64,000 nucleotides of DNA, from the sequence record LR746311. One strand, given 5' to 3'. The stretch comes from Shigella phage vB_SsoM_113. The notes beneath the pieces were generated by a model that searched no databases, had not been told where the DNA came from, and saw only the letters and a list, made by a program, of their open reading frames with translations. Shown one piece after another: positions 3,950-29,933 of this stretch (position 1 is its first letter; each line of letters opens with the position of its first letter). A program made the translations under genes and the position numbers.

Positions 3950-4543
3950 ATGAACACACTGAAGAAAATTGTTGAGTTTATTCGCACTAAACTTGGTTCT
4001 GCTATGGCTAAAAATTTATCTGTTGAAGAACAGTATACTGCTGCGGCAGCAAAACTACTTGATAAAATTAAAGATCTAAAAACTGCTTCTGTTAAATCTA
4101 TTAATGAAGAAAAACGTATTCGTGAACTTATTGTCGAAAAGAATCGACAGGCTGAATCAAAAGAGCGTGAAATTCGTAAACTTCTTTCCGAAGGTCAAGA
4201 TGTAACAATGCATGCTAAACTTGGTTTACTATATCGTCGAACAGCTGAGCAGTTGACTACTAAGGCTGACGGTTATGCTGAAATGCGAATTGAAATCGCC
4301 AAGAAAGTAGTTGAGTTAGATGATGCTCGTCAAGAGCTTGCAGTTAAATTGGAATATATCCGTGAAACTCGTGCGGCAAATGCCCTTGGAATTAGTACTG
4401 CAGATGATGTAGTTGAAATTGCAGCACTGACTAAGGTTGATATTGAAGATACCCTTGCTCGAGTTGAAACCTTTAATGGTAATATTTCTGGGGTTGAAAC
4501 TACCTCTGCCGATGTTCAGGAATACATTAATTCTCTGAAATAA
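3950..4543 (+). CDS. coiled-coil protein, possibly PspA/IM30-like (197 aa)
   Basis: Long heptad-rich helical sequence with a layout resembling E. coli PspA (recalled); SD AAGGAA upstream; PspA assignment is tentative. Confidence 0.6.
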
Positions 4544-4546
4544 TGA

Positions 4547-4566
4547 TAAGGGGCTTCGGCCCCTTA
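4547..4566 (+). terminator. terminator-like hairpin (weak U-tract)
   Basis: AAGGGGC-TTCG-GCCCCTT; trailing U-run is poor. Confidence 0.4.
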
Positions 4567-4584
4567 TACTTGGAGTAAATAGGA

Positions 4585-5559
4585 ATGAAAATGAAAATGC
4601 AAAGTGATTTCAATTCAATGTTTGAAGAGTTCCAAAGACAGGTTGATGTTCCAGACCAATTACTAAATGCTCTTAAACGCATGGCAGAAGGACGTAATTA
4701 CTATTGGGGGTCTTCATATGAAACCGATGAAAGCCTTTCCGGAAGATTTTCTAGAGGTAAAAAGTCTTTAATACGTCCTGGAATACTCATTAACAGTATT
4801 GAATCAATTCATTCATTGATGTGTGATTTTGATGTTGAATTTACTGATTTCATTTCTCCTGAATGGACGGTTTGTTATTTAAACGACGATTATGATTATC
4901 TTGGCGTTTATAGTTTAAGTGATGCATGGTTTAAACGTAATTTACAAAAATCAAATTTATTTTATATTGATACTACGGTAAAATTTCAGGGAAAGAAATA
5001 TTTCTTTACTCTTATAGTTGACTCTGAAACAAAATATGAAAATAAGCGTATTCTTAGTAAAAAGAATATCTTAACTATTGTTGATGATCTTTTTGATAAA
5101 TTCGTAGAAAATCCCAATTTTGAAAGCGATTTATTATTAGAAAATTTGTTAAGGAATGTAGAGAATATGTCAAAGCCATCACTATACCTTCCAAGTAAAC
5201 CTGTGAAGTATGAACCAAAGCGTCAGCTAATTTCTACTGATGTGTTAATAGGTCCTGTGGTAGCTGTATCATTTGTGATTTTGGTGATTGCTGGAATGGT
5301 TATAGACGTTATGACTGATATTGAATCTGGTGTAATATTTGGAGCAACACTAATTCTTCCATTGGTAGTTCCGCTTTTATTAGTACCTGTAAATTGGGTA
5401 GGATACTGGTATCAAGGAAGACATTATCGTAAACGTGTACGTGATTGGAAAGCTCAGTGTAAAAAGATTAAAAAGGAACACCAGCTTAAGCTAGATATGT
5501 ATGAATTTGATGAAATTATGAAATTTGTTAAGGAATCACGATGCAAAAGCCAAAACTAA
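4585..5559 (+). CDS. membrane-anchored protein (324 aa), C-terminal TM segments
   Basis: ORF track; hydrophobic stretches near residues 210-270; charged tail containing Cys. Confidence 0.65.
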   Translation: MKMKMQSDFNSMFEEFQRQVDVPDQLLNALKRMAEGRNYYWGSSYETDESLSGRFSRGKKSLIRPGILINSIESIHSLMCDFDVEFTDFISPEWTVCYLNDDYDYLGVYSLSDAWFKRNLQKSNLFYIDTTVKFQGKKYFFTLIVDSETKYENKRILSKKNILTIVDDLFDKFVENPNFESDLLLENLLRNVENMSKPSLYLPSKPVKYEPKRQLISTDVLIGPVVAVSFVILVIAGMVIDVMTDIESGVIFGATLILPLVVPLLLVPVNWVGYWYQGRHYRKRVRDWKAQCKKIKKEHQLKLDMYEFDEIMKFVKESRCKSQN

Positions 5560-13457: not shown

Positions 13458-13751
13458 ATGGCCTTAAAAGCAACGGCACTATTTGCCATGCTAGGATTAG
13501 CGTTTGCTTTATCTCCACCAATTGAAGCGAATGTCGATCCTCATTTTGATAAATTTATGGAATCTGGTATTAGACACGTTTATATGCTTTTTGAAAATAA
13601 AAGCGTAGAATCATCTGAACAGTTCTATAGTTTTATGCGAACGACTTATAAAAATGACCCGTGCTCTTCCGATTTTGAATGTATAGAGCGAGGCGCGGAG
13701 ATGGCACAATCATACGCTAGAATTATGAACATTAAATTGGAGACTGAATGA
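13458..13751 (+). CDS. rI: lysis inhibition regulator RI
   Basis: 97 aa with N-terminal signal-anchor; MALKATALFAMLGL...NVDPHFDKFMESGIRHVYMLF matches recalled T4 RI. Confidence 0.9.
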   Translation: MALKATALFAMLGLAFALSPPIEANVDPHFDKFMESGIRHVYMLFENKSVESSEQFYSFMRTTYKNDPCSSDFECIERGAEMAQSYARIMNIKLETE

Positions 13752-15881: not shown

Positions 15882-16403
15882 ATGTTTATTTCAAGTGAAA
15901 GCGGTTTAATTCGTGTTGAATTTAAAAATGACATCTTTCTTATTCAAGGAGATGATATTATTAAAATGAGTTATGATGAAATCAAGAAAATTTGTCATGC
16001 TCTTGAAAGTCATGGAAAAGTGAACGCTGTTATTGATATAGGTGATTTATGGGTGACACTTTATGAAGTATCCGAAGGATTTAACATTGAAGATGAAAAC
16101 AACATCTTAGCTATTGACAAAAGAAGTGATTTGTTTGATGTGTTAAAAGTTTATGAACAGTCAAACGGTGGAAGAAAAGCTGCATTGATTTATCAAAAAC
16201 CACATTCATGTGGAACTGCTTCAATCATTTCAGATATTGAAGATGAAACTGATACTTATATGTGTGTTTTAAAAGCTGGTGGTGACCGTCATCCGGATTT
16301 TATTTCTATTCGTCAAAACAATGGAGAAATTTCATTATCAAAATCAGAAGCTGAAGCTATGATTAAGTATTTAACAACTGTTACACCTTCAATGAAAGGA
16401 TGA
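15882..16403 (+). CDS. hypothetical protein (173 aa), paralog of previous gene
   Basis: ORF track; SD GAGGAA upstream. Confidence 0.6.
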   Translation: MFISSESGLIRVEFKNDIFLIQGDDIIKMSYDEIKKICHALESHGKVNAVIDIGDLWVTLYEVSEGFNIEDENNILAIDKRSDLFDVLKVYEQSNGGRKAALIYQKPHSCGTASIISDIEDETDTYMCVLKAGGDRHPDFISIRQNNGEISLSKSEAEAMIKYLTTVTPSMKG

Positions 16404-16873
16404 TTATAATTATGGTTATTAATGAAAACTCTTGGCATTATAAATTATTCAAAATGTTTAACGACGAATGGAAACGACCTAAGACACTTTGTGCATATTT
16501 TTGGTCTATTGTTATCCCTACATTTTTCGTTTCTTTTTTCGGATGTACTATACTCGCAGGTCTAACTATTATCTGTGCAGAAATCATACAGAAATGGCTT
16601 ATTTTTGGTAGTTTATGGACTCTTATTCCATCAGCATTTATACTTGCCATTTTGCTTGTTTTACTTATTATTGGTTCATTTGTTATTCCTGCACAACTAC
16701 ATGAAAAATATAAAGATTATAAATGGAAAAAGGATTATGCTTTACATGTAGAAAATATTGATAGGGCGTATAAAGGTTTACCTCCTATTCAACCCAAGAA
16801 ATCTATTATCGTCGAATTTTTAAAAGCGCGTAAAGCTAAAGTATGTCCTGTTATTGAATATAAGGCTGAATGA
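16400..16873 (+). CDS. membrane protein (157 aa, about three TM helices)
   Basis: ORF track; hydrophobic segments. Confidence 0.6.
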   Translation: MIIIMVINENSWHYKLFKMFNDEWKRPKTLCAYFWSIVIPTFFVSFFGCTILAGLTIICAEIIQKWLIFGSLWTLIPSAFILAILLVLLIIGSFVIPAQLHEKYKDYKWKKDYALHVENIDRAYKGLPPIQPKKSIIVEFLKARKAKVCPVIEYKAE

Positions 16874-17883
16874 TGAAAACAGTAATGAAAAGCTATTTTG
16901 GTAGTCATCTTTATGGAACTTCTACTCCAGAATCTGATGTAGATTTTAAAGAAATCTTTGTTCCTCCTGCTCGCGATATTCTTATCGGAAATGTTAAAGA
17001 GCATATGAGTAAAAACACTAACAACACATCATCTAAAAACACTAAAGATGATATTGACCATGAACTATATAGTCTTAAGTATTTCTTTAAATTAGCTGCA
17101 GATGGTGAAACTGTAGCATTGGATATGCTCCACACTCCACCGGAACTAGTGGTTAAATCTGATTTGCCTGATGTATGGAAGTTTATTCAAGACAATCGTT
17201 CTCGTTTTTATACGACTAACATGAAATCCTATTTAGGATATGTTCGCAAGCAAGCTTCTAAATACGGTGTTAAGGGTTCTCGTTTGGCCGCATTACGTGA
17301 TGTATTGAAAGTAGTTAATCAAATCCCTGAGCAATGGGTTGATTACCAAGAAGACGGTTCCATTAAGCAGCGTCGAACTAAAGTTGAAGATATTAAGCAT
17401 CGTCTTCCAGAGAACGAATTCTGTGAATGGGTATTCCATAATCATGAGAAAACAGGCCCACAAACGTTCTACACCGTGTTGGGTCGTAAATATCAAACAA
17501 TGCTTTCTCTTATCGAGCTTAAGCAATCTTTGAATAAACTTGATGCTGAATACGGCGAACGCGCTCGTAAGGCCGAAGCTAATGAGGGCATTGACTGGAA
17601 AGCTCTGAGTCATGCTTGCCGTGGTGGACTCCAACTATTGGAAATTTACAAAACTGGTGACTTAGTCTATCCACTTCAAGATGCTCCATTTATTCTCGAC
17701 GTGAAGTTGGGTAAACATCCATTTAAAACTGTTCAAGAGTTTTTGGAAGATGTGGTCGATCAAGTAGAAGCAGCATCCATTGAAGCTTCTAAGAACGGTA
17801 TGCAGCAAAAAGTAGACATGGGTTTCTGGGATGACTTCCTTGAGAGGGTTTATCTTGAAAACCACCGAAGTTATTATAAATGA
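16870..17883 (+). CDS. Pol-beta superfamily nucleotidyltransferase-like protein (337 aa)
   Basis: N-terminal YFGSHLYGTSTPESDVDF fits the GS-x10-DxD nucleotidyltransferase signature; about 230-aa helical C-terminal extension. Confidence 0.65.
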   Translation: MMKTVMKSYFGSHLYGTSTPESDVDFKEIFVPPARDILIGNVKEHMSKNTNNTSSKNTKDDIDHELYSLKYFFKLAADGETVALDMLHTPPELVVKSDLPDVWKFIQDNRSRFYTTNMKSYLGYVRKQASKYGVKGSRLAALRDVLKVVNQIPEQWVDYQEDGSIKQRRTKVEDIKHRLPENEFCEWVFHNHEKTGPQTFYTVLGRKYQTMLSLIELKQSLNKLDAEYGERARKAEANEGIDWKALSHACRGGLQLLEIYKTGDLVYPLQDAPFILDVKLGKHPFKTVQEFLEDVVDQVEAASIEASKNGMQQKVDMGFWDDFLERVYLENHRSYYK

Positions 17884-17963: not shown

Positions 17964-17997
17964 ACAACTATCAACTGATACGGATTTGGGGAATAAA

Positions 17998-18147
17998 ATG
18001 AAAACTACGTTAATTGAAGTAAAAAAGTTGATTGACACAGAAGAAATTTCAGCTTATTTTGAAAATTTCTTAGAAGATGCAACTGAAGATAACGCAGTTT
18101 ATCTCGCTCAGAAAATTATAGAAACATATTTGGAGCAGAATCAATGA
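17998..18147 (+). CDS. hypothetical small acidic protein (49 aa)
   Basis: Hand-translated ORF with SD GGGG upstream and cassette-type leader; below the track cut-off. Confidence 0.4.
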   Translation: MKTTLIEVKKLIDTEEISAYFENFLEDATEDNAVYLAQKIIETYLEQNQ

Positions 18148-18407
18148 CAGTTTACGTAGATGTTTTAATGAATCATGGATGGAAACTTCGCGGTCATCCA
18201 ACTAAAAATTGTCATATGTTCACTGATGGAGATATTGAAGAGCTTCATAAAATGGCAGAAGCAATAGGAATGAAACGTTCTTGGTTTCAAGATAAACGCA
18301 TTAAACATTATGACTTACATGCTCGCCGACGCCAAAAAGCCGTAGAACTTGGAGCTGTAGAAGTATCTCGTCGCGAAGCAGTAAAAATTTGGCAAACATT
18401 AAAATAA
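18144..18407 (+). CDS. DUF4031-like small protein (87 aa)
   Basis: MTVYVD...HYDL pattern recalled for the DUF4031 family; assignment tentative. Confidence 0.5.
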   Translation: MTVYVDVLMNHGWKLRGHPTKNCHMFTDGDIEELHKMAEAIGMKRSWFQDKRIKHYDLHARRRQKAVELGAVEVSRREAVKIWQTLK

Positions 18408-19909: not shown

Positions 19910-20437
19910 ATGAACGCTAAAGATATTTTCAACTTGGTAAATTACAACGATGGTAAATTTAAATCTGAGGCACAAAGCAAGTTCTTTAATGACATCTCAA
20001 TCGGAGGTGAAATCACTGTTGATGGAGGACAAATTTACAAATCCCGTTGGAATTGGATCGTTATTATTGATGAGATCGGTATTGTAGAAATTTACAAAAA
20101 TACGAATAAAAATCGTACATTACACTGGTCTCGTGATACTAACGAACAGTACAAAAAGGATAAAGCATCTAAATTATCTCGTGTAACTCAAGAAGATATT
20201 GAGTTCATCAAGAAAGATATTTTAATGTATGATAACTTAATTGCTGAAGAGCAAGCTGTTATTGATAAATTTGACGAGATTAAAGCTTCTCGTGAAATTC
20301 CTGATTTTATGAAAGAATCAGTAAATGAACGATACACTCTCATTTCAGAGCGTATTGAAACTTACAAAAAGCAAAGAGCTGAACGCCAAAATACTCTTCG
20401 GAAGTTTGAAGAACGGTTAAAGACGGTACTCGCATAA
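19910..20437 (+). CDS. hypothetical protein (175 aa)
   Basis: ORF track; SD GGAGG upstream. Confidence 0.6.
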   Translation: MNAKDIFNLVNYNDGKFKSEAQSKFFNDISIGGEITVDGGQIYKSRWNWIVIIDEIGIVEIYKNTNKNRTLHWSRDTNEQYKKDKASKLSRVTQEDIEFIKKDILMYDNLIAEEQAVIDKFDEIKASREIPDFMKESVNERYTLISERIETYKKQRAERQNTLRKFEERLKTVLA

Positions 20438-20440
20438 CCG

Positions 20441-20463
20441 CTTTATACCAAGGATGGTATAAT
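20441..20463 (+). promoter_or_regulatory. extended -10 promoter-like element inside a palindrome
   Basis: TTATACC-AAGGAT-GGTATAAT: TGGTATAAT extended -10 within a 7-bp inverted repeat; no clear -35. Confidence 0.35.
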
Positions 20464-20492
20464 GGTTCTAAGCCCTTTTAATTGAGATTATT

Positions 20493-20900
20493 ATGAAACA
20501 GTTGATAATTAAAAGATTGAATTTATTGATATGTTGTTTATGTGTAGTAGTTGCATATGGTTATTACGCAATTAATGATTATATGCATTATAAAGATTAT
20601 GATGTTACTGTAGTTAATACCATTACAGGAACACAAGGAAAAGGGTCTAGTTTATCGTTTATTGCCGTATATGAACTCAAAGATGGTTATAGATTTAGTG
20701 AATATATTTCCCCAGAGATGTATTCTTCAATAGAAAAAGGTGATAATATTACTGTAAGTTTACGTCCTTTCGACGTAAAACAGACATTGTTTGATAATAT
20801 TGTTTGGTTCTTTGGAATGGTATTAGTTCAATCTGTGTGTGGTGCTTATATAGTCTGTTCCATCTTATTCTGTATATTTAGTAAAATTGAAATTGAGTGA
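20493..20900 (+). CDS. membrane protein (135 aa)
   Basis: ORF track; N- and C-terminal hydrophobic helices. Confidence 0.6.
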   Translation: MKQLIIKRLNLLICCLCVVVAYGYYAINDYMHYKDYDVTVVNTITGTQGKGSSLSFIAVYELKDGYRFSEYISPEMYSSIEKGDNITVSLRPFDVKQTLFDNIVWFFGMVLVQSVCGAYIVCSILFCIFSKIEIE

Positions 20901-20907
20901 GGAAAAT

Positions 20908-21798
20908 ATGTCAGTAGTAATTAATAATGTCAATGCAGTAATTAAATCTTTAGTTAATAAAAAAATGATGAATGAATGGACTGTATTTCGCAGTGCAGAG
21001 CCAGATAAATTTTTTCATAGATTTAACCCAACTTTGGATTTGAATGTTATTGACAGAGATGTTCATGCAGAAATTTTAGATAAGTTTAAAGTTGATATTG
21101 GATTTGGATTAGAAAAACATTTGCAGCGAACAAACGGATCTGGAATGAGTTTATCTAATCGCATTATGAAAGCCCTTAATAAAATTGGAGCATTGTCTCG
21201 TATTAACGCGAGTGAAATCCTTCGTAATTATAATAAAGGATATGACCTTTATGGTCGACTAATGCCAAAATTATCATTCGATCAAATGATTGCGGATTTG
21301 TGGGAAAATCAAAGACGATTATTAGCATTAGGCGCTCGATTAGCTAAAGGTCTAGATAAACAAATGATTTTTAAGACCAATAATACAGAAGACCTTAAAT
21401 GCTTTAAATTTAGTATTCGTGGCGATGATTATTATATCAGAGCTCGCTCTACAGATTATGTCAATATGGGGCATCATCTCTGTTTAGCTTTTGAAGTTTT
21501 AAAAGAAGCTGGAACATTAGAATATTCATCTGGTGCAAAATGCCCTATTGGTTCAAGTTGTATTTTAATTTATCGCCCGGATGAATCCAGTTCAACTACA
21601 TTGCCTACGAAACCTGTATCAGTTCGTAGTAACGAAAAACATTCTGAACAAATTGATTATTTTAATAAACAGATTGAAGAGCTGAATATTTCTATTCAAC
21701 AATATGATGATGAAATTTTCAGACTATCTGGACTGAGTAGTAAAGCTAAATCTGAGCGTGAAAAGTTAATTAAAATTGTCGATTTACTTAAATCTTAA
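20908..21798 (+). CDS. paralog family member A, C-terminal coiled coil (296 aa)
   Basis: ATG at 20908 after GAGGAAAA; helical tail EQIDYFNKQIEELNISIQQYDDEIFRL... Confidence 0.65.
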   Translation: MSVVINNVNAVIKSLVNKKMMNEWTVFRSAEPDKFFHRFNPTLDLNVIDRDVHAEILDKFKVDIGFGLEKHLQRTNGSGMSLSNRIMKALNKIGALSRINASEILRNYNKGYDLYGRLMPKLSFDQMIADLWENQRRLLALGARLAKGLDKQMIFKTNNTEDLKCFKFSIRGDDYYIRARSTDYVNMGHHLCLAFEVLKEAGTLEYSSGAKCPIGSSCILIYRPDESSSTTLPTKPVSVRSNEKHSEQIDYFNKQIEELNISIQQYDDEIFRLSGLSSKAKSEREKLIKIVDLLKS

Positions 21799-21806
21799 GG
21801 AATACC

Positions 21807-22829
21807 ATGAAAACTCGTTCTCAAATTGAAGATATGGTTCGTAATGCCAGCTATACTCGTGATGCTATGACGTTTTTGTGTGAAAATAATTTAGACCTTG
21901 GTAAAGTTAATTGTTCCATTCATGCCTTTAAACATCTGAACAGCAGTGAATGGGTGCGCAATTTTAACCAAGCAGGATATATTACACAAATGACGGCTCG
22001 TGAGCAGCTCACTGATTTCTGTAAAACTATTGATTATAAAAATCCTCTATTTGTTCAAGGTGTTGGCCAAAGTAAGGTCGATTTATCATCTGGATTTTTC
22101 AATCCAAATCATTATCGTATTGAATGGAGATTTATTGCTCTATTCCGTAAACAATTAAAACAAATTTTATCAATTGCGAGTCGATTAAAAGGTTCTGATA
22201 TTAACTTAAAGAATCTGAAATTTGATGGTTATACTCTTCAGATGGAAGTAAGACCATTAAAAGAAAATAACAGAACTGCGCGAATTAGCTTTAAACCTAA
22301 TACAAAAAATTCTCTTTCAATTTGCGAATGCCTTAAATCACAGTTGACAGAAGCATTTAAGTATATGGATGTTGTTGCCGCTGTTCAGTCTAAGATTTTA
22401 CCTCATTTTGAGCGAAATTGGGAACATACAACAACGTATGAACTTGATATGATCGTTTCATTTAAATACGATTTTTTGAGAAAGGACGAAGTCCCACAAG
22501 AGAAAAAGCAGGAAGTGCAAGATAACTTAAATTTATCCAATTACTCATCAAACGATCCTAAATTTTGGATGTATAGTTCAAGTAATAAAGATGCATGGAA
22601 ATTCAATAAAGTGAATTTTCTTCCTGTTGAAAATCCGAGTCTTAAACCTGTTGAAAAATGGCATGCGGATGCGATTGAGAAGTCTATCAAGGCAGTAGAT
22701 GATGAACTCGTTAAAGCAACTAATGAAGTGTTAGAAGCTGAAAAGATGCTAGAAAAAGCTCAAGAAAAAGTCAAAAATCTTACGAAGCAACGTTCTAAAC
22801 TGAACAATGCACTAAATGCACTAAACTAG
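21807..22829 (+). CDS. paralog family member B, C-terminal coiled coil (340 aa)
   Basis: ORF track; internal motif WRFIALFRKQLKQILSIASRL shared with member C; coiled-coil tail. Confidence 0.65.
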   Translation: MKTRSQIEDMVRNASYTRDAMTFLCENNLDLGKVNCSIHAFKHLNSSEWVRNFNQAGYITQMTAREQLTDFCKTIDYKNPLFVQGVGQSKVDLSSGFFNPNHYRIEWRFIALFRKQLKQILSIASRLKGSDINLKNLKFDGYTLQMEVRPLKENNRTARISFKPNTKNSLSICECLKSQLTEAFKYMDVVAAVQSKILPHFERNWEHTTTYELDMIVSFKYDFLRKDEVPQEKKQEVQDNLNLSNYSSNDPKFWMYSSSNKDAWKFNKVNFLPVENPSLKPVEKWHADAIEKSIKAVDDELVKATNEVLEAEKMLEKAQEKVKNLTKQRSKLNNALNALN

Positions 22830-22859
22830 TTTACTTTGCCACAAGGATGTGGTATAATG
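22830..22859 (+). promoter_or_regulatory. T4-type early promoter
   Basis: GTTTAC, 18-bp spacer, TGGTATAAT. Confidence 0.65.
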
Positions 22860-22886
22860 TTCTTACTTTCTACTGAGGAGATTAAT

Positions 22887-23888
22887 ATGACTCGTAACGA
22901 ATATATCAAATCATTCAATAGCGTTATTGATGATAAAGTTAAGACTGTGTCTAGTCAGAATAGTGTTATTTCCATTATCAATCAATGGCTCAATAATACT
23001 GATGCAAGTATTGTTTCTTCAAGCAAATTTATTCATGAAGTTCATAAAATTTCTAGTCGCGAATATAAAGATGATATTAAGGAAACTTTTAAAGGTTCTC
23101 GTCTTCTTTCATATTTAGTTAATCAAGATATTCTTGGTAAATTTGGGAAAGAAATTAAACGAACTAAAGATGTAGTAGGATACAGTTGGTTCGGTGATGT
23201 TAATTCTTATCATCTTAATAATAAAGAAGACCCTGAGAATATTTTTACTCGTCGTTGGATTAGTAATTTTAGACTTTTCAAGAAGCAAATTCTAAAATCA
23301 GCTTCTAAATTATGCTATGGTGATTATCGTCAAATCCATCCTTGGGCTTCTGATATGATTATCATAAAAGAATATGAGCTTGATAAAAATAAAGCAGCTA
23401 TTTTTGTGAATTATGAATTTTTTACACCAGAAGCTAATCAAAAGAACATTAATAAATTTTTCTCAATTGCTAGCGATATAACTCGTCAGTTAGAGACCGC
23501 ATTACTTTGTATGGAAACAGTAGAAAATATTCATACTTATCCTTTTAAGAATATATGCGGTTGGGAAGGATATAAAATTGTAGTTAGTCTCCGTGAAGTA
23601 AAGTGTGCGTACTCACCGACTGATAAAGAAATTTACCAACAAAAATGTGATGAAATTGTGAATACTCCTAAAGAAGAAACTACCCTTGAGGAACTAATGG
23701 AATGTCTTGACGATTCACCTGAACCGGTAGAAATTCGTCCAGAAGTTATTGCACTAGAAAAAGCTTATAAAGAAGTTCTAGAAATTTCTAATAAAGCGCA
23801 GAAAGATTATGAGCAGGCTAAAAGGATTTGGGAAGAATCTGTTAATCGCCTGGATCGTCTTGAACAAGCTTTACAGTTAATTAAGTAA
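22887..23888 (+). CDS. paralog family member C, C-terminal coiled coil (333 aa)
   Basis: ATG at 22887 after GAGGAG; internal motif WISNFRLFKKQILKSASKL; coiled-coil tail. Confidence 0.65.
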   Translation: MTRNEYIKSFNSVIDDKVKTVSSQNSVISIINQWLNNTDASIVSSSKFIHEVHKISSREYKDDIKETFKGSRLLSYLVNQDILGKFGKEIKRTKDVVGYSWFGDVNSYHLNNKEDPENIFTRRWISNFRLFKKQILKSASKLCYGDYRQIHPWASDMIIIKEYELDKNKAAIFVNYEFFTPEANQKNINKFFSIASDITRQLETALLCMETVENIHTYPFKNICGWEGYKIVVSLREVKCAYSPTDKEIYQQKCDEIVNTPKEETTLEELMECLDDSPEPVEIRPEVIALEKAYKEVLEISNKAQKDYEQAKRIWEESVNRLDRLEQALQLIK

Positions 23889-23940
23889 TTTAAAGCCAAG
23901 GATGGCTCGGAGTATAAATCATTAACCAAGTGAGAAGAAC

Positions 23941-24867
23941 ATGAAAACTCGTAAACATTATATTGATTATTTTGACAGCCTTATTACTAAACACCGTAAT
24001 TATCAGATCGGACACAGAGCAGTAATCAATAATATTCTTCGTGATTTTTTAGACTATATTGGATGGGAAAACCATATTTGTAAAGATACACAAAATGCAT
24101 ATTCACATTCTCTTGGTTCTTTGCTAGAGTGGTTCAAACGTTCCCGATTACTATCTTCTGTAATAGCTGTTAATAATGTTAAAAAATTTATGTATCCAAG
24201 CTACATTGAGACTAATGTATCAAATGCTAATGTTGTTACATTTAATATTATTAATGACGTGAAAAGAACTTATTTAGAAGAATGGTTTTCTAAAAATAGT
24301 AAAGAAAAATTCGCTAGTGAGTTTTCAGGTGAATTTAATGAGAACGTTAATATGCTTTTTAAGCATTCTCGTAGACTGTTTTGTCATGGTGATAATCGTA
24401 CTATTAATGTGAATGTAAAAGACTGGGTTACTGCTAAATTCACTCCATCATCCCAGAATGGACAATTTGAATTATCAATTATCATTTGTGCTCCGCACGA
24501 GATATATAAAAATCTTCCGTATATGAAACCGCACGAAGCTAATAAACACAATGAAACTATTAGTTCTTTGGCTTATAATTTGCGTGAGTTATTATCTAAT
24601 ATGGATGTAGTTAAATCCTTTGATGATAATACGAATTATGGTCTTTCACTGTTTGAAACTAAATTTGTTATTAAGTTAAAGGACCCCAGCGAATTTAAAC
24701 CTACACCAAAGCACAATCATGGGAATGATACTATGAAAGAAGAACGTGAATATCTCAGTGCTCGTTTGATTGAAGTTGAAAAACAGATTGAAGAGCATAC
24801 TAAAGTTCTTAAGGCTTTAACCGCCAAAGCAGATGGTTTACGTGATGCTATTGAGGTGCTGAAATGA
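23941..24867 (+). CDS. paralog family member D, C-terminal coiled coil (308 aa)
   Basis: ORF track; SD GAGAAG upstream; coiled-coil tail EEREYLSARLIEVEKQIEEHTKVLKAL... Confidence 0.65.
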   Translation: MKTRKHYIDYFDSLITKHRNYQIGHRAVINNILRDFLDYIGWENHICKDTQNAYSHSLGSLLEWFKRSRLLSSVIAVNNVKKFMYPSYIETNVSNANVVTFNIINDVKRTYLEEWFSKNSKEKFASEFSGEFNENVNMLFKHSRRLFCHGDNRTINVNVKDWVTAKFTPSSQNGQFELSIIICAPHEIYKNLPYMKPHEANKHNETISSLAYNLRELLSNMDVVKSFDDNTNYGLSLFETKFVIKLKDPSEFKPTPKHNHGNDTMKEEREYLSARLIEVEKQIEEHTKVLKALTAKADGLRDAIEVLK

Positions 24868-25181
24868 AAAAGCGTCTATTAGAAGATATTGCAGCTTCAA
24901 GTAATTCCAGTCTAATTAAAATTATTATGGCTGGTGAAGAAGACGATTTGGAAATGCGTGGAAAGATTCATGGTTGTGACGATTTAGATTTTAAACCTCC
25001 AGCTTGGGATGCCATTATGGCTATGGTTGAACGTCGCGAAAGGGCTTCTAAAAACGTTCCTAATTGTCCTGAATGCGGTACTGAACAGGTACAATTAGTT
25101 CATTGGCAAACTAGTAATCTTCGTTATAAATGTCGTCATTGTAAACACCGATTTGAGAGAGAAGAAAATGTCCAAGCGTAA
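24864..25181 (+). CDS. zinc-ribbon protein (105 aa)
   Basis: C-terminal CPECG...CRHCKH four-Cys motif. Confidence 0.6.
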
Positions 25182-25419
25182 AGAATATATGAAGACTGCT
25201 GAAATGGCAGTCCGCGAATTAGCAATAGCTTATTATTATGAACATGGTAAATTTCCTGATAGATACAGCGTGCTTAAATCTGCTTTAACTCGTTCATATA
25301 AAAATATGCTATCAGAAGTAAGTGATATTATATACAAACATAAAGAACAAACGGGCCAAAGTCTTGATTACGACGAGACTTTTAAACAAGTACTAGGAAT
25401 TAAGGAATATTATGTTTAA
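25168..25419 (+). CDS. hypothetical protein (83 aa)
   Basis: ATG at 25168; track ORF starts at 25153. Confidence 0.5.
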
Positions 25420-25675
25420 AGTATATGGTTATGATAGCAGTATCCATAAATGCGTGTATTGTGATAATGCAAAACGTCTTTTGACTGTGAAGAAACAGCC
25501 GTTTGAATTTATCAACATTATGCCGGAAAAAGGTGTTTTTGATGATGAGAAAATCGCTGAGCTTCTGACGAAACTAGGTCGTGATACTCAAATTGGTTTG
25601 ACAATGCCGCAAGTATTTGCTCCTGATGGAAGTCATATTGGTGGATTTGACCAATTGCGGGAATACTTTAAATGA
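25412..25675 (+). CDS. nrdC: glutaredoxin/thioredoxin NrdC
   Basis: 87 aa; [23 protein letters not shown] with CVYC active site matches recalled T4 NrdC. Confidence 0.9.
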
Positions 25676-25887
25676 TGCTCGAAGGAACTGATTATATCCA
25701 TGACTACCGCGGAAGCGCGGTATATGTAGGTGATGAGGTTGCAGTTTATTATGGGTATGGAACTTTGATGACAGCAAAGGTTATTCAAATTAAAAATAAT
25801 CGTGCTAAACTCGAAGTTTATTATTCTAATGGTGAAAAGTCTATTTCTAAATGGAAATATGGCGATTGTATGGTCAAACTGGGGTAA
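25672..25887 (+). CDS. hypothetical protein (71 aa)
   Basis: ORF track. Confidence 0.5.
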   Translation: MMLEGTDYIHDYRGSAVYVGDEVAVYYGYGTLMTAKVIQIKNNRAKLEVYYSNGEKSISKWKYGDCMVKLG

Positions 25888-25889
25888 AT

Positions 25890-26060
25890 ATGATTTACGA
25901 TATTAGCGTATCAAGAACTCCGTCAATGGTTACTATTCCTGCTGAAGAATTAGATCGTCTTCAGAAAATTGAAGAACTTCTTTGGGAAATTGAATCTGAT
26001 TTGCCATCAGGACTAGAATCCTGGATTGATTATGAAGAACTTAATAAATTGCGAAATTAA
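25890..26060 (+). CDS. hypothetical small protein (56 aa)
   Basis: ATG at 25890; track ORF starts at 25851. Confidence 0.4.
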   Translation: MIYDISVSRTPSMVTIPAEELDRLQKIEELLWEIESDLPSGLESWIDYEELNKLRN

Positions 26061-26070
26061 TTGGTGAAAA

Positions 26071-26391
26071 ATGACTATTGAAAATAAATTAGATGTTGAT
26101 GCAGTTCTGAGTGAAATCATCGAAGACCATGATGCATTTTCAGAAAATTATGATTTCGATTTTTCGGATTATCTTAAACCTGTCGAAATAGAAGATTGGG
26201 TACAAGATGGCAAATGCCAATATCGTCAGTGTGTTTATTTTAGTCCAAAACATAACGTTCATGTGTCTGTAAATGAAACTCGCTCAGGTTCTTACCATTC
26301 TGACTGGTATTATGCAGTTCCGACTGTTGAACTAGTCGAGCCCCATGAACGTGTAGTAACTCAGACAATACGAGAATGGATTACGCTATAA
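26071..26391 (+). CDS. hypothetical acidic protein (106 aa)
   Basis: ORF track. Confidence 0.55.
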   Translation: MTIENKLDVDAVLSEIIEDHDAFSENYDFDFSDYLKPVEIEDWVQDGKCQYRQCVYFSPKHNVHVSVNETRSGSYHSDWYYAVPTVELVEPHERVVTQTIREWITL

Positions 26392-27178: not shown

Positions 27179-27652
27179 ATGTTATTGACTGGCAAATTAT
27201 ATAAAGAAGAAAAACAGAAATTTTATAACGCACAAAACGGTAAATGCTTAATTTGCCAACGAGAACTAAATCCTGATGTTCAAGCTAATCACCTTGACCA
27301 TGACCATGAATTAAATGGACCAAAAGCAGGAAAGGTACGTGGATTGCTCTGTAATCTTTGCAATGCAGCGGAAGGTCAAATGAAACATAAATTTAATCGT
27401 TCTGGCTTAAAGGGACAAGGCGTTGATTATCTTGAATGGTTAGAAAATTTACTTACTTATTTAAAATCCGATTACACCCAAAATAATATTCACCCTAACT
27501 TCGTTGGAGATAAATCAAAGGAATTTTCTCGTTTAGGAAAAGAGGAAATGATGGCTGAGATGCTTCAAAGAGGATTTGAATATAATGAATCTGACACTAA
27601 AACACAATTAATAGCTTCATTTAAGAAGCAGCTTAGAAAGAGTTTAAAATGA
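27179..27652 (+). CDS. 49: endonuclease VII (Holliday junction resolvase)
   Basis: 157 aa; Cys-rich N-terminus CLICQRELNP...HLDHDHELNG matches recalled T4 gp49. Confidence 0.9.
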   Translation: MLLTGKLYKEEKQKFYNAQNGKCLICQRELNPDVQANHLDHDHELNGPKAGKVRGLLCNLCNAAEGQMKHKFNRSGLKGQGVDYLEWLENLLTYLKSDYTQNNIHPNFVGDKSKEFSRLGKEEMMAEMLQRGFEYNESDTKTQLIASFKKQLRKSLK

Positions 27653-29466
27653 CAATTGAAAAAGAAATTGAAGGATTGATTCATAAAACTAATAAAGACC
27701 TTTTAAACGAGAATGCTAATAAAGATTCTCGTGTTTTTCCAACTCAACGGGACCTTATGGCTGGTATTGTGTCTAAACACATTGCCAAAAATATGGTCCC
27801 GTCTTTTATTATGAAAGCGCATGAAAGCGGAATTATCCATTTCCATGATATTGATTATTCCCCTGCTCTTCCATTTACTAATTGCTGTTTAGTAGATTTA
27901 AAAGGAATGCTTGAGAACGGATTTAAGCTCGGTAATGCGCAGATTGAAACTCCTAAATCAATCGGCGTTGCTACTGCAATTATGGCACAAATTACTGCAC
28001 AGGTTGCTTCTCATCAATATGGCGGAACGACTTTTGCGAATGTAGATAAAGTACTTTCTCCTTATGTTAAACGCACCTATGCAAAACATATTGAGGACGC
28101 AGAAAAATGGCAAATCGCTGATGCGTTGAATTATGCCCAATCTAAAACAGAAAAAGACGTATACGATGCATTCCAAGCTTATGAATATGAAGTAAATACT
28201 CTCTTTAGTTCAAACGGACAAACGCCTTTTGTAACAATTACATTTGGTACGGGAACTGACTGGACTGAACGAATGATTCAGAAAGCAATTCTGAAAAATC
28301 GTATTAAAGGTCTTGGTCGCGATGGGATAACTCCTATTTTCCCTAAGCTTGTTATGTTCGTTGAAGAAGGTGTTAATCTTTATAAAGACGATCCAAACTA
28401 TGATATTAAGCAGCTTGCTCTAGAGTGTGCAAGCAAAAGAATGTATCCTGATATTATTTCAGCTAAGAACAATAAAGCTATCACCGGTTCATCTATTCCT
28501 GTTTCTCCAATGGGTTGCCGTAGTTTCTTGAGCGTATGGAAAGATTCGACTGGTAATGAAATTCTTGATGGACGTAATAATCTTGGCGTTGTAACACTGA
28601 ATCTTCCTCGCATTGCGTTAGATTCTTATATTGGAACACAGTTCAATGAACAGAAATTTGCTGAATTGTTCAATGAACGAATGGATTTGTGTTTTGAAGC
28701 TTTGATGTGTAGAATTAGTTCCTTAAAAGGAGTTAAAGCGACTGTTGCTCCTATTCTTTACCAAGAAGGTGCATTTGGGGTTCGTCTTAAACCTGATGAC
28801 GACATAATTGAGTTATTTAAAAACGGTAGAAGTTCAGTGTCCTTAGGATACATTGGTATTCACGAATTGAATATTCTTGTCGGTCGTGATATTGGACAGG
28901 AAATTTTAACTAAAATGAATGCTCGTCTTAAGCAGTGGACTGAAAGAACCGGTTTTGCTTTTAGCTTGTATTCTACTCCTGCTGAAAACCTGTGCTATCG
29001 CTTCTGTAAACTTGATACTGAGAAATATGGAAGTGTAAAGGATGTTACTGATAAAGGCTGGTACACTAACAGTTTCCATGTTTCAGTAGAAGAAAATATC
29101 ACTCCGTTTGAAAAGATTTCTCGCGAAGCCCCATATCATTTCATTGCGACAGGTGGTCACATTTCTTATGTTGAACTTCCTGATATGAAAAATAACCTAA
29201 AAGGTCTTGAGGCTGTATGGGATTATGCTGCACAACATTTAGATTATTTTGGTGTTAATATGCCGGTAGATAAATGTTTTACATGCGGAAGTACCCATGA
29301 AATGACTCCTACTGAAAACGGGTTTGTTTGTTCTATTTGTGGAGAAACTGATCCTAAAAAGATGAACACAATAAGAAGAACTTGTGGCTATTTGGGAAAT
29401 CCGAATGAACGCGGATTTAATCTTGGAAAAAATAAAGAAATCATGCATAGGGTTAAACACCAATGA
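27649..29466 (+). CDS. nrdD: anaerobic ribonucleoside-triphosphate reductase
   Basis: 605 aa, continuous (no intron); C-terminal Zn-ribbon and glycyl-radical region; matches T4 NrdD length. Confidence 0.92.
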   Translation: MTIEKEIEGLIHKTNKDLLNENANKDSRVFPTQRDLMAGIVSKHIAKNMVPSFIMKAHESGIIHFHDIDYSPALPFTNCCLVDLKGMLENGFKLGNAQIETPKSIGVATAIMAQITAQVASHQYGGTTFANVDKVLSPYVKRTYAKHIEDAEKWQIADALNYAQSKTEKDVYDAFQAYEYEVNTLFSSNGQTPFVTITFGTGTDWTERMIQKAILKNRIKGLGRDGITPIFPKLVMFVEEGVNLYKDDPNYDIKQLALECASKRMYPDIISAKNNKAITGSSIPVSPMGCRSFLSVWKDSTGNEILDGRNNLGVVTLNLPRIALDSYIGTQFNEQKFAELFNERMDLCFEALMCRISSLKGVKATVAPILYQEGAFGVRLKPDDDIIELFKNGRSSVSLGYIGIHELNILVGRDIGQEILTKMNARLKQWTERTGFAFSLYSTPAENLCYRFCKLDTEKYGSVKDVTDKGWYTNSFHVSVEENITPFEKISREAPYHFIATGGHISYVELPDMKNNLKGLEAVWDYAAQHLDYFGVNMPVDKCFTCGSTHEMTPTENGFVCSICGETDPKKMNTIRRTCGYLGNPNERGFNLGKNKEIMHRVKHQ

Positions 29467-29933
29467 ATTATGATAGATTTTATCCTTGTGATTTTGTGAA
29501 TGGCCCTGGATGCAGGGTCGTTCTTTTCGTTACAGGTTGTTTGCATAAATGCGAAGGGTGTTATAATAAATCAACATGGAATGCTAGAAATGGCATTCCA
29601 TTCACTGGTGAAACACTGGAACAATTAATTGAATGTTTGAATAATGATTATATAGAAGGATTAACTATAACTGGAGGAGACCCTCTCTATCCTGATAACC
29701 GAGATGTTGTTCATTGCATTGTTCAAACAGTAAAAAATCTTTATCCAAATAAAAGCATTTGGTTGTGGACAGGATATAAGTTTGAGGATATTAAACAACT
29801 AGAAATGCTTAAATATGTTGATGTTATTATTGATGGGAAGTATGAGAAAAATCTTCCGACTAAAAAGCTGTGGCGAGGATCAGATAATCAGCGACTTTGG
29901 TCAAATACCGATGGGGTGTGGAAACATGATTAA
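29463..29933 (+). CDS. nrdG: anaerobic RNR activating enzyme (radical SAM)
   Basis: 156 aa; Cys-rich radical-SAM-type N-terminus CLHKCEGC; overlaps nrdD stop. Confidence 0.88.
   Translation: MNYDRFYPCDFVNGPGCRVVLFVTGCLHKCEGCYNKSTWNARNGIPFTGETLEQLIECLNNDYIEGLTITGGDPLYPDNRDVVHCIVQTVKNLYPNKSIWLWTGYKFEDIKQLEMLKYVDVIIDGKYEKNLPTKKLWRGSDNQRLWSNTDGVWKHD

Follow-up and report, generated by a model that had tools for sequence, protein, structure and literature searches.

Four consecutive genes in Shigella phage vB_SsoM_113 (sequence record LR746311), called A, B, C and D here, are the orthologues of T4 nrdC.6, nrdC.5, nrdC.4 and nrdC.3, respectively, and at the same time diverged paralogues that form one phage-only superfamily derived from a single ancestral gene. 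They lie in a 64,000-nucleotide (nt) stretch of that record, hereafter the window, and all coordinates are positions in it. The T4 orthologue of B, nrdC.5, is published as a gene that counters the SIR2 defence protein Dsr1 (Srikant et al., 2022, PMC9391042), and since the four belong to one family the other three become good anti-defence candidates. The reading that we favor, and consider rather probable, is that the four proteins are stoichiometric inhibitors of host defence sensors, oligomerised through a coiled coil, with a target of its own for each paralogue.

The phage is a T4-like Tequatrovirus. A megablast search with positions 20400-25700 of the window returned 655 phage records, the best of which are Escherichia and Shigella Tequatroviruses at 95-99% DNA identity, with T2 at 94.6%; 464 phage records cover at least 80% of the four-gene block. 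The assignment of A to D to the T4 genes is based on the gene-for-gene match with the annotated T2 and T4 regions and on tblastn of the T4 proteins against the window, which gave colinear matches between nrdC.7 and nrdC.2 (identities in Table 1). In searches with hidden Markov models (HMMs), A matches phrog_2257 over its full length (E 5.5e-151; precomputed Pfam PF26899) and B likewise PHROG 2351 (E 1.3e-167), in addition to Pfam DUF7235 (PF23882) with 422.3 bits (E 1.6e-126, residues 1-340 against model positions 1-307, gathering threshold 30 bits), while C and D share one PHROG, phrog_1435 (E 2e-164 for C, with precomputed Pfam PF26897, and E 3.5e-99 for D). An earlier note made from the sequence alone (the original prediction) had described four consecutive + strand genes of 296, 340, 333 and 308 amino acids (aa), and this is confirmed: each has an ATG start with a Shine-Dalgarno-like GAGG/AGGA 5' of it, the minus-strand open reading frames (ORFs) within the region are all of 57 aa or less, and the GC skew agrees with transcription of the + strand. 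The genes themselves are therefore well known from T4 and are found in their normal place; it is the family link that is new in detail, as the database entries treat A, B and C/D as three families without relation to one another, whereas they are linked into one superfamily here.

The published phenotype of nrdC.5 comes from an evolved T4 deletion clone that no longer plates on ECOR17, where deletion of dsr1 from the host restores plating; cloned Dsr1 protects MG1655 from the deletion clone, and T4 nrdC.5, called an early gene in that work, restores infection of MG1655 carrying Dsr1 by the deletion mutant when it is expressed alone (PMC9391042). Dsr1 is a SIR2 NADase fused to a tetratricopeptide repeat (TPR) sensor that recognises the phage major capsid protein (preprint PMC12803255). 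B shares with T4 NrdC.5 its position, its length and the full-length DUF7235 match, and differs from it at ~9% of residues; B would be expected to keep the anti-Dsr1 activity. The statement that the function of this family is unknown thus does not hold for B, and it is only for nrdC.3, nrdC.4 and nrdC.6 that we found no paper on any function; nor did the literature yield a paper on the mechanism of NrdC.5. In T4 the four are dispensable accessory genes: nrdC.3, nrdC.4, nrdC.5 and nrdC.6 were all scored as non-essential by HIDEN-SEQ, and nrdC.1-6 were lost as a block from a genome-reduced T4 (PMC9825161).

The paralogy of the four genes is best seen at the level of sequence profiles. In an all-vs-all BLASTP comparison only the pair C-D stands out, with 24% identity over 270 aa at E 0.015, so that plain BLASTP is nearly blind to this family and, taken alone, would have led to a wrong rejection of paralogy. 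For hhalign, family alignments were made from homologues of A, B and C together with the syntenic genes of Gaprivervirus VR26, Dhakavirus IME281, and Mosigvirus HX01 and phiC120, and in the final comparison P0056, a natural nrdC.5/nrdC.3 fusion, was left out of family B. C and D then align with a probability of 98.4% (E ~5e-15, ~210 columns), and with the tails removed at E 4.7e-15, and B aligns with C at 95.7% (E 8.8e-9, 248 columns), or 95.6% (E 1.1e-8, 170 columns) when the 55-residue tails are cut off. B against the merged C+D profile reaches 97.2% (E 3e-11, 247 columns), direct comparison of B with D gives 22% (E 1e-3, 135 columns), and A with B 12-25% (~1e-3) over 60 columns (A 87-146, B 50-128). 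A tail match between B and D at E 2.5e-6, obtained with P0056 included, was rejected as spurious because the fusion sat in family B; the 22% is what is left after its removal. The all-vs-all alignment suggested for checking the original prediction was thus negative by BLASTP, except for C-D, and positive by hhalign for C-D and B-C. The motif pair WRFIALFRKQLKQILSIASRL (and WISNFRLFKKQILKSASKL) and the MDVV/METV site, on which the description of the genes as "diverged duplicates" had been based, fall in confidently aligned hhalign columns, and the more general W..F+..IL..AS+L and M(D/E).V motifs are likewise aligned in columns of high confidence, so that the description stands, with structure taking the place of profiles for A.

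AlphaFold2 models were made for A and C, with a predicted local distance difference test score (pLDDT) of 77.1 and 82.8, respectively. Both models show the same order of elements, namely N-terminal helices, short strands, a helix pair, a hairpin, a long helix and a second hairpin, followed by a low-confidence linker and then the terminal helix. When the C model was compared with BFVD by Foldseek, matches included NrdC.3 of fPS-65 (E 1e-8) and NrdC.6 of JS10 (E 3e-6, TM score 0.41/0.47), and the A and C models have five significant BFVD targets in common (IME523, PM2, Acj9, Mineola and Cronus), which means that structure prediction, also put forward as a check, came out in favor of the duplication. 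A 21-sequence MAFFT alignment adds motifs common to the four families, that is, a (G/S)xLS..xA...LxxF/Y helix, a ..R..L...A.+L..G helix, L..AL..M..V, a Pro before the tail and the terminal L..A(I/L)..LK. Through the AlphaFold2/Foldseek results and these short motifs A appears to join B, C and D, by the weaker link of the set.

Conservation across the whole superfamily is confined to columns with hydrophobic residues, Gly or Pro and to the terminal LK, and the 21-sequence alignment contains no conserved polar residue able to be catalytic, which bears out the earlier remark that no catalytic motif is visible; A to D are not enzymes. Pfam, NCBIfam, PADLOC and PDB sequence searches of the four proteins gave no significant match beyond DUF families, the remainder being sub-threshold coiled-coil noise (e.g., syntaxin, BrxC and PgrA), and no related solved structure was found in the PDB sequence searches. 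Many GenBank records name nrdC.3-nrdC.9 "thioredoxin", and one gene is named "Mur ligase domain-containing protein". A thioredoxin or glutaredoxin identity was considered and ruled out, as there is no CXXC, no thioredoxin Pfam match and no thioredoxin fold; the widespread label on nrdC.3-.6 is exposed as an artefact of name propagation.

The four proteins have a common architecture, in which a variable bundle of helices at the N-terminus is followed by the central alpha/beta domain, and a disordered, often acidic linker leads to a conserved coiled-coil helix at the C-terminus. The tails of A, B, C and D have hydrophobic a/d fractions of 0.86, 0.93, 0.79 and 0.79 in the best register, compared with 0.54-0.57 (standard deviation 0.06-0.07) for shuffles of the same residues and a maximum of 0.71 elsewhere in the same proteins. 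AlphaFold2 places a terminal helix of 48 residues (285-332) in C and a broken one of 30+18 residues (243-272 and 278-295) in A. The heptad-like tail of roughly 50 residues noticed at the outset is therefore present in all four, with a length of 45-55 residues, and in each the coiled-coil helix ends in L..A(I/L)..LK. Judging from the heptads and the models, the tail would serve to oligomerise the proteins. The central domain, as modelled for C, contains a small sheet, a helix pair with a W..F+..IL..AS+L..GD motif, a hairpin, a long helix ending in M-E-T-V, and another hairpin.

The family is narrowly distributed when searched for by sequence and reaches further when searched for by structure. 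An exhaustive HMMER search with a B/C/D profile against 1.84 billion representatives found only 18 proteins at E<=1e-3, of which ~10 are full length, and by this measure the family seems limited to T-even-like phages. By Foldseek it extends to proteins of 300-370 aa in T4-like phages of Acinetobacter, Klebsiella, Enterobacter, Pectobacterium, Erwinia and Serratia, and no relative was found outside T4-like (Straboviridae) phages. In Acinetobacter phage Acj61 (Twarogvirinae) the two structural matches are the adjacent genes p120 and p121, both with coiled-coil ends and both located between nrdC and nrdC.10, which is the slot that the family occupies here; sequence profiles do not detect them, so that this link is structural only. 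A tblastn search of distant phages with nrdC.8 as anchor gave matches within four Tevenvirinae genera only. Among the genera compared, Gapriver-, Dhaka- and Mosigvirus each have a triplet made up of an nrdC.6-like gene, an nrdC.5-like gene and one nrdC.4/nrdC.3-like gene, and it is only in Tequatrovirus that nrdC.4 and nrdC.3 are both present.

Related tails on genes that stand in tandem might also mean that the four proteins make up one hetero-oligomeric complex instead of four independent inhibitors. The common L..A(I/L)..LK terminus, the good conservation of the tails between genera (below) and the occurrence of at least two or three members in tandem in every genus examined would all suit such a complex. 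We nevertheless regard it as improbable, since the copy number varies (Tequatrovirus has four genes, Dhaka-, Gapriver- and Mosigvirus have three each and Acj61 has two), variants without nrdC.4 (P0056) or without the nrdC.6 tail (the T4 reference record) occur naturally, and plasmid-borne nrdC.5 alone rescued the T4 deletion clone on Dsr1, the state of the paralogues in that clone not being stated in the text.

The rate of change of these genes counts in favor of the inhibitor reading. We compared the window with T4 by the ratio of nonsynonymous to synonymous substitution rates (dN/dS), which is 0.18-0.20 for B, C and D, 0.05 for A and 0.02-0.05 for nrdC.8, nrdC.10, nrdC.11, nrdC, gp49 and nrdD; the "fast-diverging tandem family" of the original prediction is thus borne out. 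Amino acid identity to Mosigvirus is 32% for A, 23% for B and 53% for D, with no match for C, compared with 79-99% for nrdC.11, nrdC.10, nrdC.8, nrdC and gp49. The four genes diverge far faster than their neighbors, as would be expected of an arms race. The values for pin (0.19) and nrdC.1 (0.24) are close to those of B, C and D. Counter-defence genes are known nearby, with nrdC.1 acting against Septu and gp49.2 against OLD (reported in T6), and like A to D the genes nrdC.1, gp49.2 and pin (a Lon inhibitor) are non-essential, have a similar dN/dS and belong to the same hyperplastic early-gene block; what sets them apart from A to D is the lack of sequence relationship, a far smaller size (51-161 aa) and their occurrence as single copies.

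Comparison between genera shows the strongest conservation in the tail and the helix pair, and the greatest variability in the N-terminal 80 residues and in the region of the hairpin and long helix. Within Tequatrovirus nrdC.3 is dimorphic, with either at least 88% or ~60% identity to the window allele. The nrdC.3 of ime09 (positions 4501-5430 of the comparison locus) is identical to D over residues 1-30 (100%), has 87% identity over residues 31-60 (~93% overall for the first 60) and 77-90% over the last 40 residues, and falls to only 33-63% in the center, while the whole protein is 87% identical to that of Mosigvirus HX01. The similarity of this second allele class to Mosigvirus is limited to the central domain. 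Given conserved ends, a divergent center and this Mosigvirus match, the central domain of nrdC.3 was exchanged by recombination as a cassette between genera, with the N-terminus and the tail retained. The central domain of C is the equivalent of the part swapped between nrdC.3 alleles. The conservation of the tail, together with a central domain that is variable and can be swapped, suggests the latter as the location of target specificity.

Other rearrangements have affected the block. P0056 is an in-frame natural fusion in which NrdC.5 residues 146-272 are continued by the C-terminal half of an NrdC.3 of the Mosigvirus type, so that nrdC.4 must have been deleted. NrdC.6 of Shigella phage Sf25 (P0120, 378 aa) has an internal tandem duplication of ~83 residues (aa 177-259). 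The T4 reference NrdC.6 (NC_000866; 12067-12894 of the comparison locus) has 275 aa with a frameshifted C-terminus and lacks the coiled-coil tail, whereas A here is a full 296 aa with its tail; because the T4 annotation in the HIDEN-SEQ supplement gives nrdC.6 as 891 nt, as in the window, the reference may carry an error or a lesion of the laboratory strain. In the T2 record LC348380 both nrdC.6 and nrdC.4 are split into fragments. A protein of 173 aa (P0236) combines an unrelated N-terminal part of 120 residues with the C-terminal 53 residues of NrdC.5 (a 100% match to the tail of B) and may be another recombinant or an assembly artefact.

Frameshifted and split copies of this kind (nrdC.6 in the T4 reference, nrdC.6 and nrdC.4 in T2) are what one might see if nrdC.5 were the only anti-defence gene, with A, C and D being either host-takeover accessories that bind housekeeping machinery or nearly neutral, decaying duplicates, and it would agree with this that no phenotype is reported for nrdC.3, nrdC.4 and nrdC.6. 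It seems unlikely to us for several reasons. Hundreds of Tequatrovirus genomes have all four genes intact, at a dN/dS far under 1, members of the family are kept in the same slot across Straboviridae subfamilies, and the exchange of the nrdC.3 central domain between genera suggests selection for specificity switching. The split copies may themselves be sequencing errors, the full length of nrdC.6 in the other T4 annotation being a case in point.

In the mechanism that we favor, each protein would oligomerise through its conserved tail, which would give avidity, and its variable globular part would inhibit a single host anti-phage sensor or effector by stoichiometric binding. B would disarm the SIR2/TPR NADase Dsr1 as T4 NrdC.5 does, and A, C and D would disarm other defence proteins or other variants of the Dsr1 type. 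The closest functional analogue is DSAD1, the anti-DSR2 factor of SPbeta-like Bacillus phages, which is likewise small and non-enzymatic and acts by blocking a defence-associated sirtuin; comparison of A to D with DSAD1 found no homology in sequence or fold. Defence sirtuins are themselves oligomeric, DSR2 being described as a tetramer.

Several observations weigh against this mechanism. A phenotype exists for only one of the four, and that for the T4 allele of nrdC.5, from which B differs at 9% of residues; the hits named in the main text of the HIDEN-SEQ study include nrdC.1 and, on the hosts tested, none of nrdC.3-.6. All dN/dS values remain far under 1, and within Tequatrovirus there is considerable constraint on A (0.05-0.08). 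The link of A to the family is the weaker one because sequence profiles by themselves bring it only to P ~1e-3, predicted structures (TM 0.41-0.47) and short motifs supplying the rest. Finally, direct binding of NrdC.5 to Dsr1 is suggested by analogy with DSAD1 and DSR2. The counter-defence role foreseen in the original prediction is thus strengthened by the T4 orthologue of B, which overcomes Dsr1, and by the fast evolution of the genes, and by analogy it would extend to A, C and D.

Two further readings concern the central domain. The resemblance of its fold is treated here as that of a generic two-layer alpha/beta sandwich, and as a lead, not as homology. One may imagine that the nrdC-nrdC.10 slot of all Straboviridae is a modular inhibitor platform, in which the conserved tail and N-terminus frame an exchangeable, hypervariable domain that is derived from the virion or mimics it (tail-terminator-like), each paralogue or allele jamming a different pattern-recognition sensor with Dsr1 as the first example. 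This is a long shot; if true, the array would correspond, on the phage side, to a diversified family of immune-evasion genes, and its specificity could be read from the cassette. The least probable of the readings considered is that the proteins act as decoys by imitating a structural protein of the phage, with a central domain like that of a tail-terminator or tail-completion protein occupying the sensors that recognise virion proteins.

For the inhibitor reading, the tie to nrdC.5 turns three long-standing T4 "hypothetical proteins" (nrdC.6, nrdC.4 and nrdC.3) into concrete and cheaply testable anti-defence candidates, and gives the same candidate status to the structural relatives in T4-like phages of Klebsiella, Acinetobacter, Serratia, Erwinia and Pectobacterium. 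The domain pattern may also help to map the interaction with Dsr1 and to predict the host range of T4-like phages used in therapy.

Table 1. Coordinates of the four genes, their predicted parts and the landmark genes of the locus (window positions).
Feature	Position	Strand	Description
Gene A	20908..21798	+	296 aa; T4 nrdC.6 orthologue; 97% aa identity over 259 aa; same synteny
C-terminal heptad tail of A	21634..21795	+	residues ~243-296; two helices, break at GLSS
Gene B	21807..22829	+	340 aa; T4 nrdC.5 orthologue; 91% aa identity; length equal to T4 protein
C-terminal heptad tail of B	22668..22826	+	residues ~288-340
Early-type promoter-like site	22829..22858	+	directly upstream of gene C; GTTTAC, 17-nt spacer, TGgTATAAT
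Gene C	22887..23888	+	333 aa; T4 nrdC.4 orthologue; 90% aa identity
Central alpha/beta domain of C	23148..23591	+	residues 88-235
C-terminal heptad tail of C	23739..23885	+	one helix, residues 285-332
Gene D	23941..24867	+	308 aa; T4 nrdC.3 orthologue; 91% aa identity; closest paralogue of C
C-terminal heptad tail of D	24724..24864	+	residues ~262-308
rI	13458-13748		tblastn/synteny with T4, T2
nrdC.11	16870-17883		tblastn/synteny with T4, T2
nrdC	25412-25675		tblastn/synteny with T4, T2

The promoter-like site scores 10/12 in a scan with the T4 early consensus and has an extended -10, the hexamers TTTACT and TATAAT being 17 nt apart, and it may act as an early promoter of C.

The gene order of the wider locus in the window is tk, rI.1, rI, rI.-1, mobD.5 to mobD.1, nrdC.11, nrdC.10, nrdC.9, nrdC.8, nrdC.7 and A to D, followed 3' of D by nrdC.2, nrdC.1, nrdC, 49.2, 49.1, pin, gene 49, nrdD and nrdG. 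The original prediction had further held that the block between rI and nrdC is expanded to roughly double its size in T4. The synteny comparison, run with T4 and T2, upheld the gene-for-gene match and overturned the expansion: the distance from the end of rI to the start of nrdC is 11,664 base pairs here and ~10.8 kb in T4 (19 annotated genes there), and T4 holds the same four genes. The differences from T4 are small, mobD and 49.3 being absent from the window, where a DUF4031 gene and a 53-aa ORF are found between nrdC.11 and nrdC.10.

The latter two are small + strand ORFs at 17986-18407, of 53 and 87 aa, the 87-aa product being a clear DUF4031 protein (Pfam E 1.6e-21); neither gave a tblastn match in the six comparison loci (T4, T2, HX01, phiC120, VR26 and IME281). 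In place of the mobD homing endonuclease, at 15882-16873, there is a 173-aa protein with Pfam T4_y05I_N and T4_y05I_C ("putative transcription factor"); a 157-aa ORF comes next and immediately precedes nrdC.11. On the other side of the four genes, the nrdC.1 orthologue (25177-25419) is 95% identical to that of T4 and the 49.2 orthologue (26071-26391) 93% identical to T4 gp49.2, and the position of 49.3 is taken by two small ORFs (25672-26060) common to T2 and HX01. Unlike in T4, nrdD (in the region 27649-29933) is one uninterrupted ORF of 605 aa without the I-TevII intron, and mobC is missing from the space between nrdD and nrdG. The NrdG of the window is 99% identical to the proteins of T2 and Mosigvirus and only 80% to that of T4.

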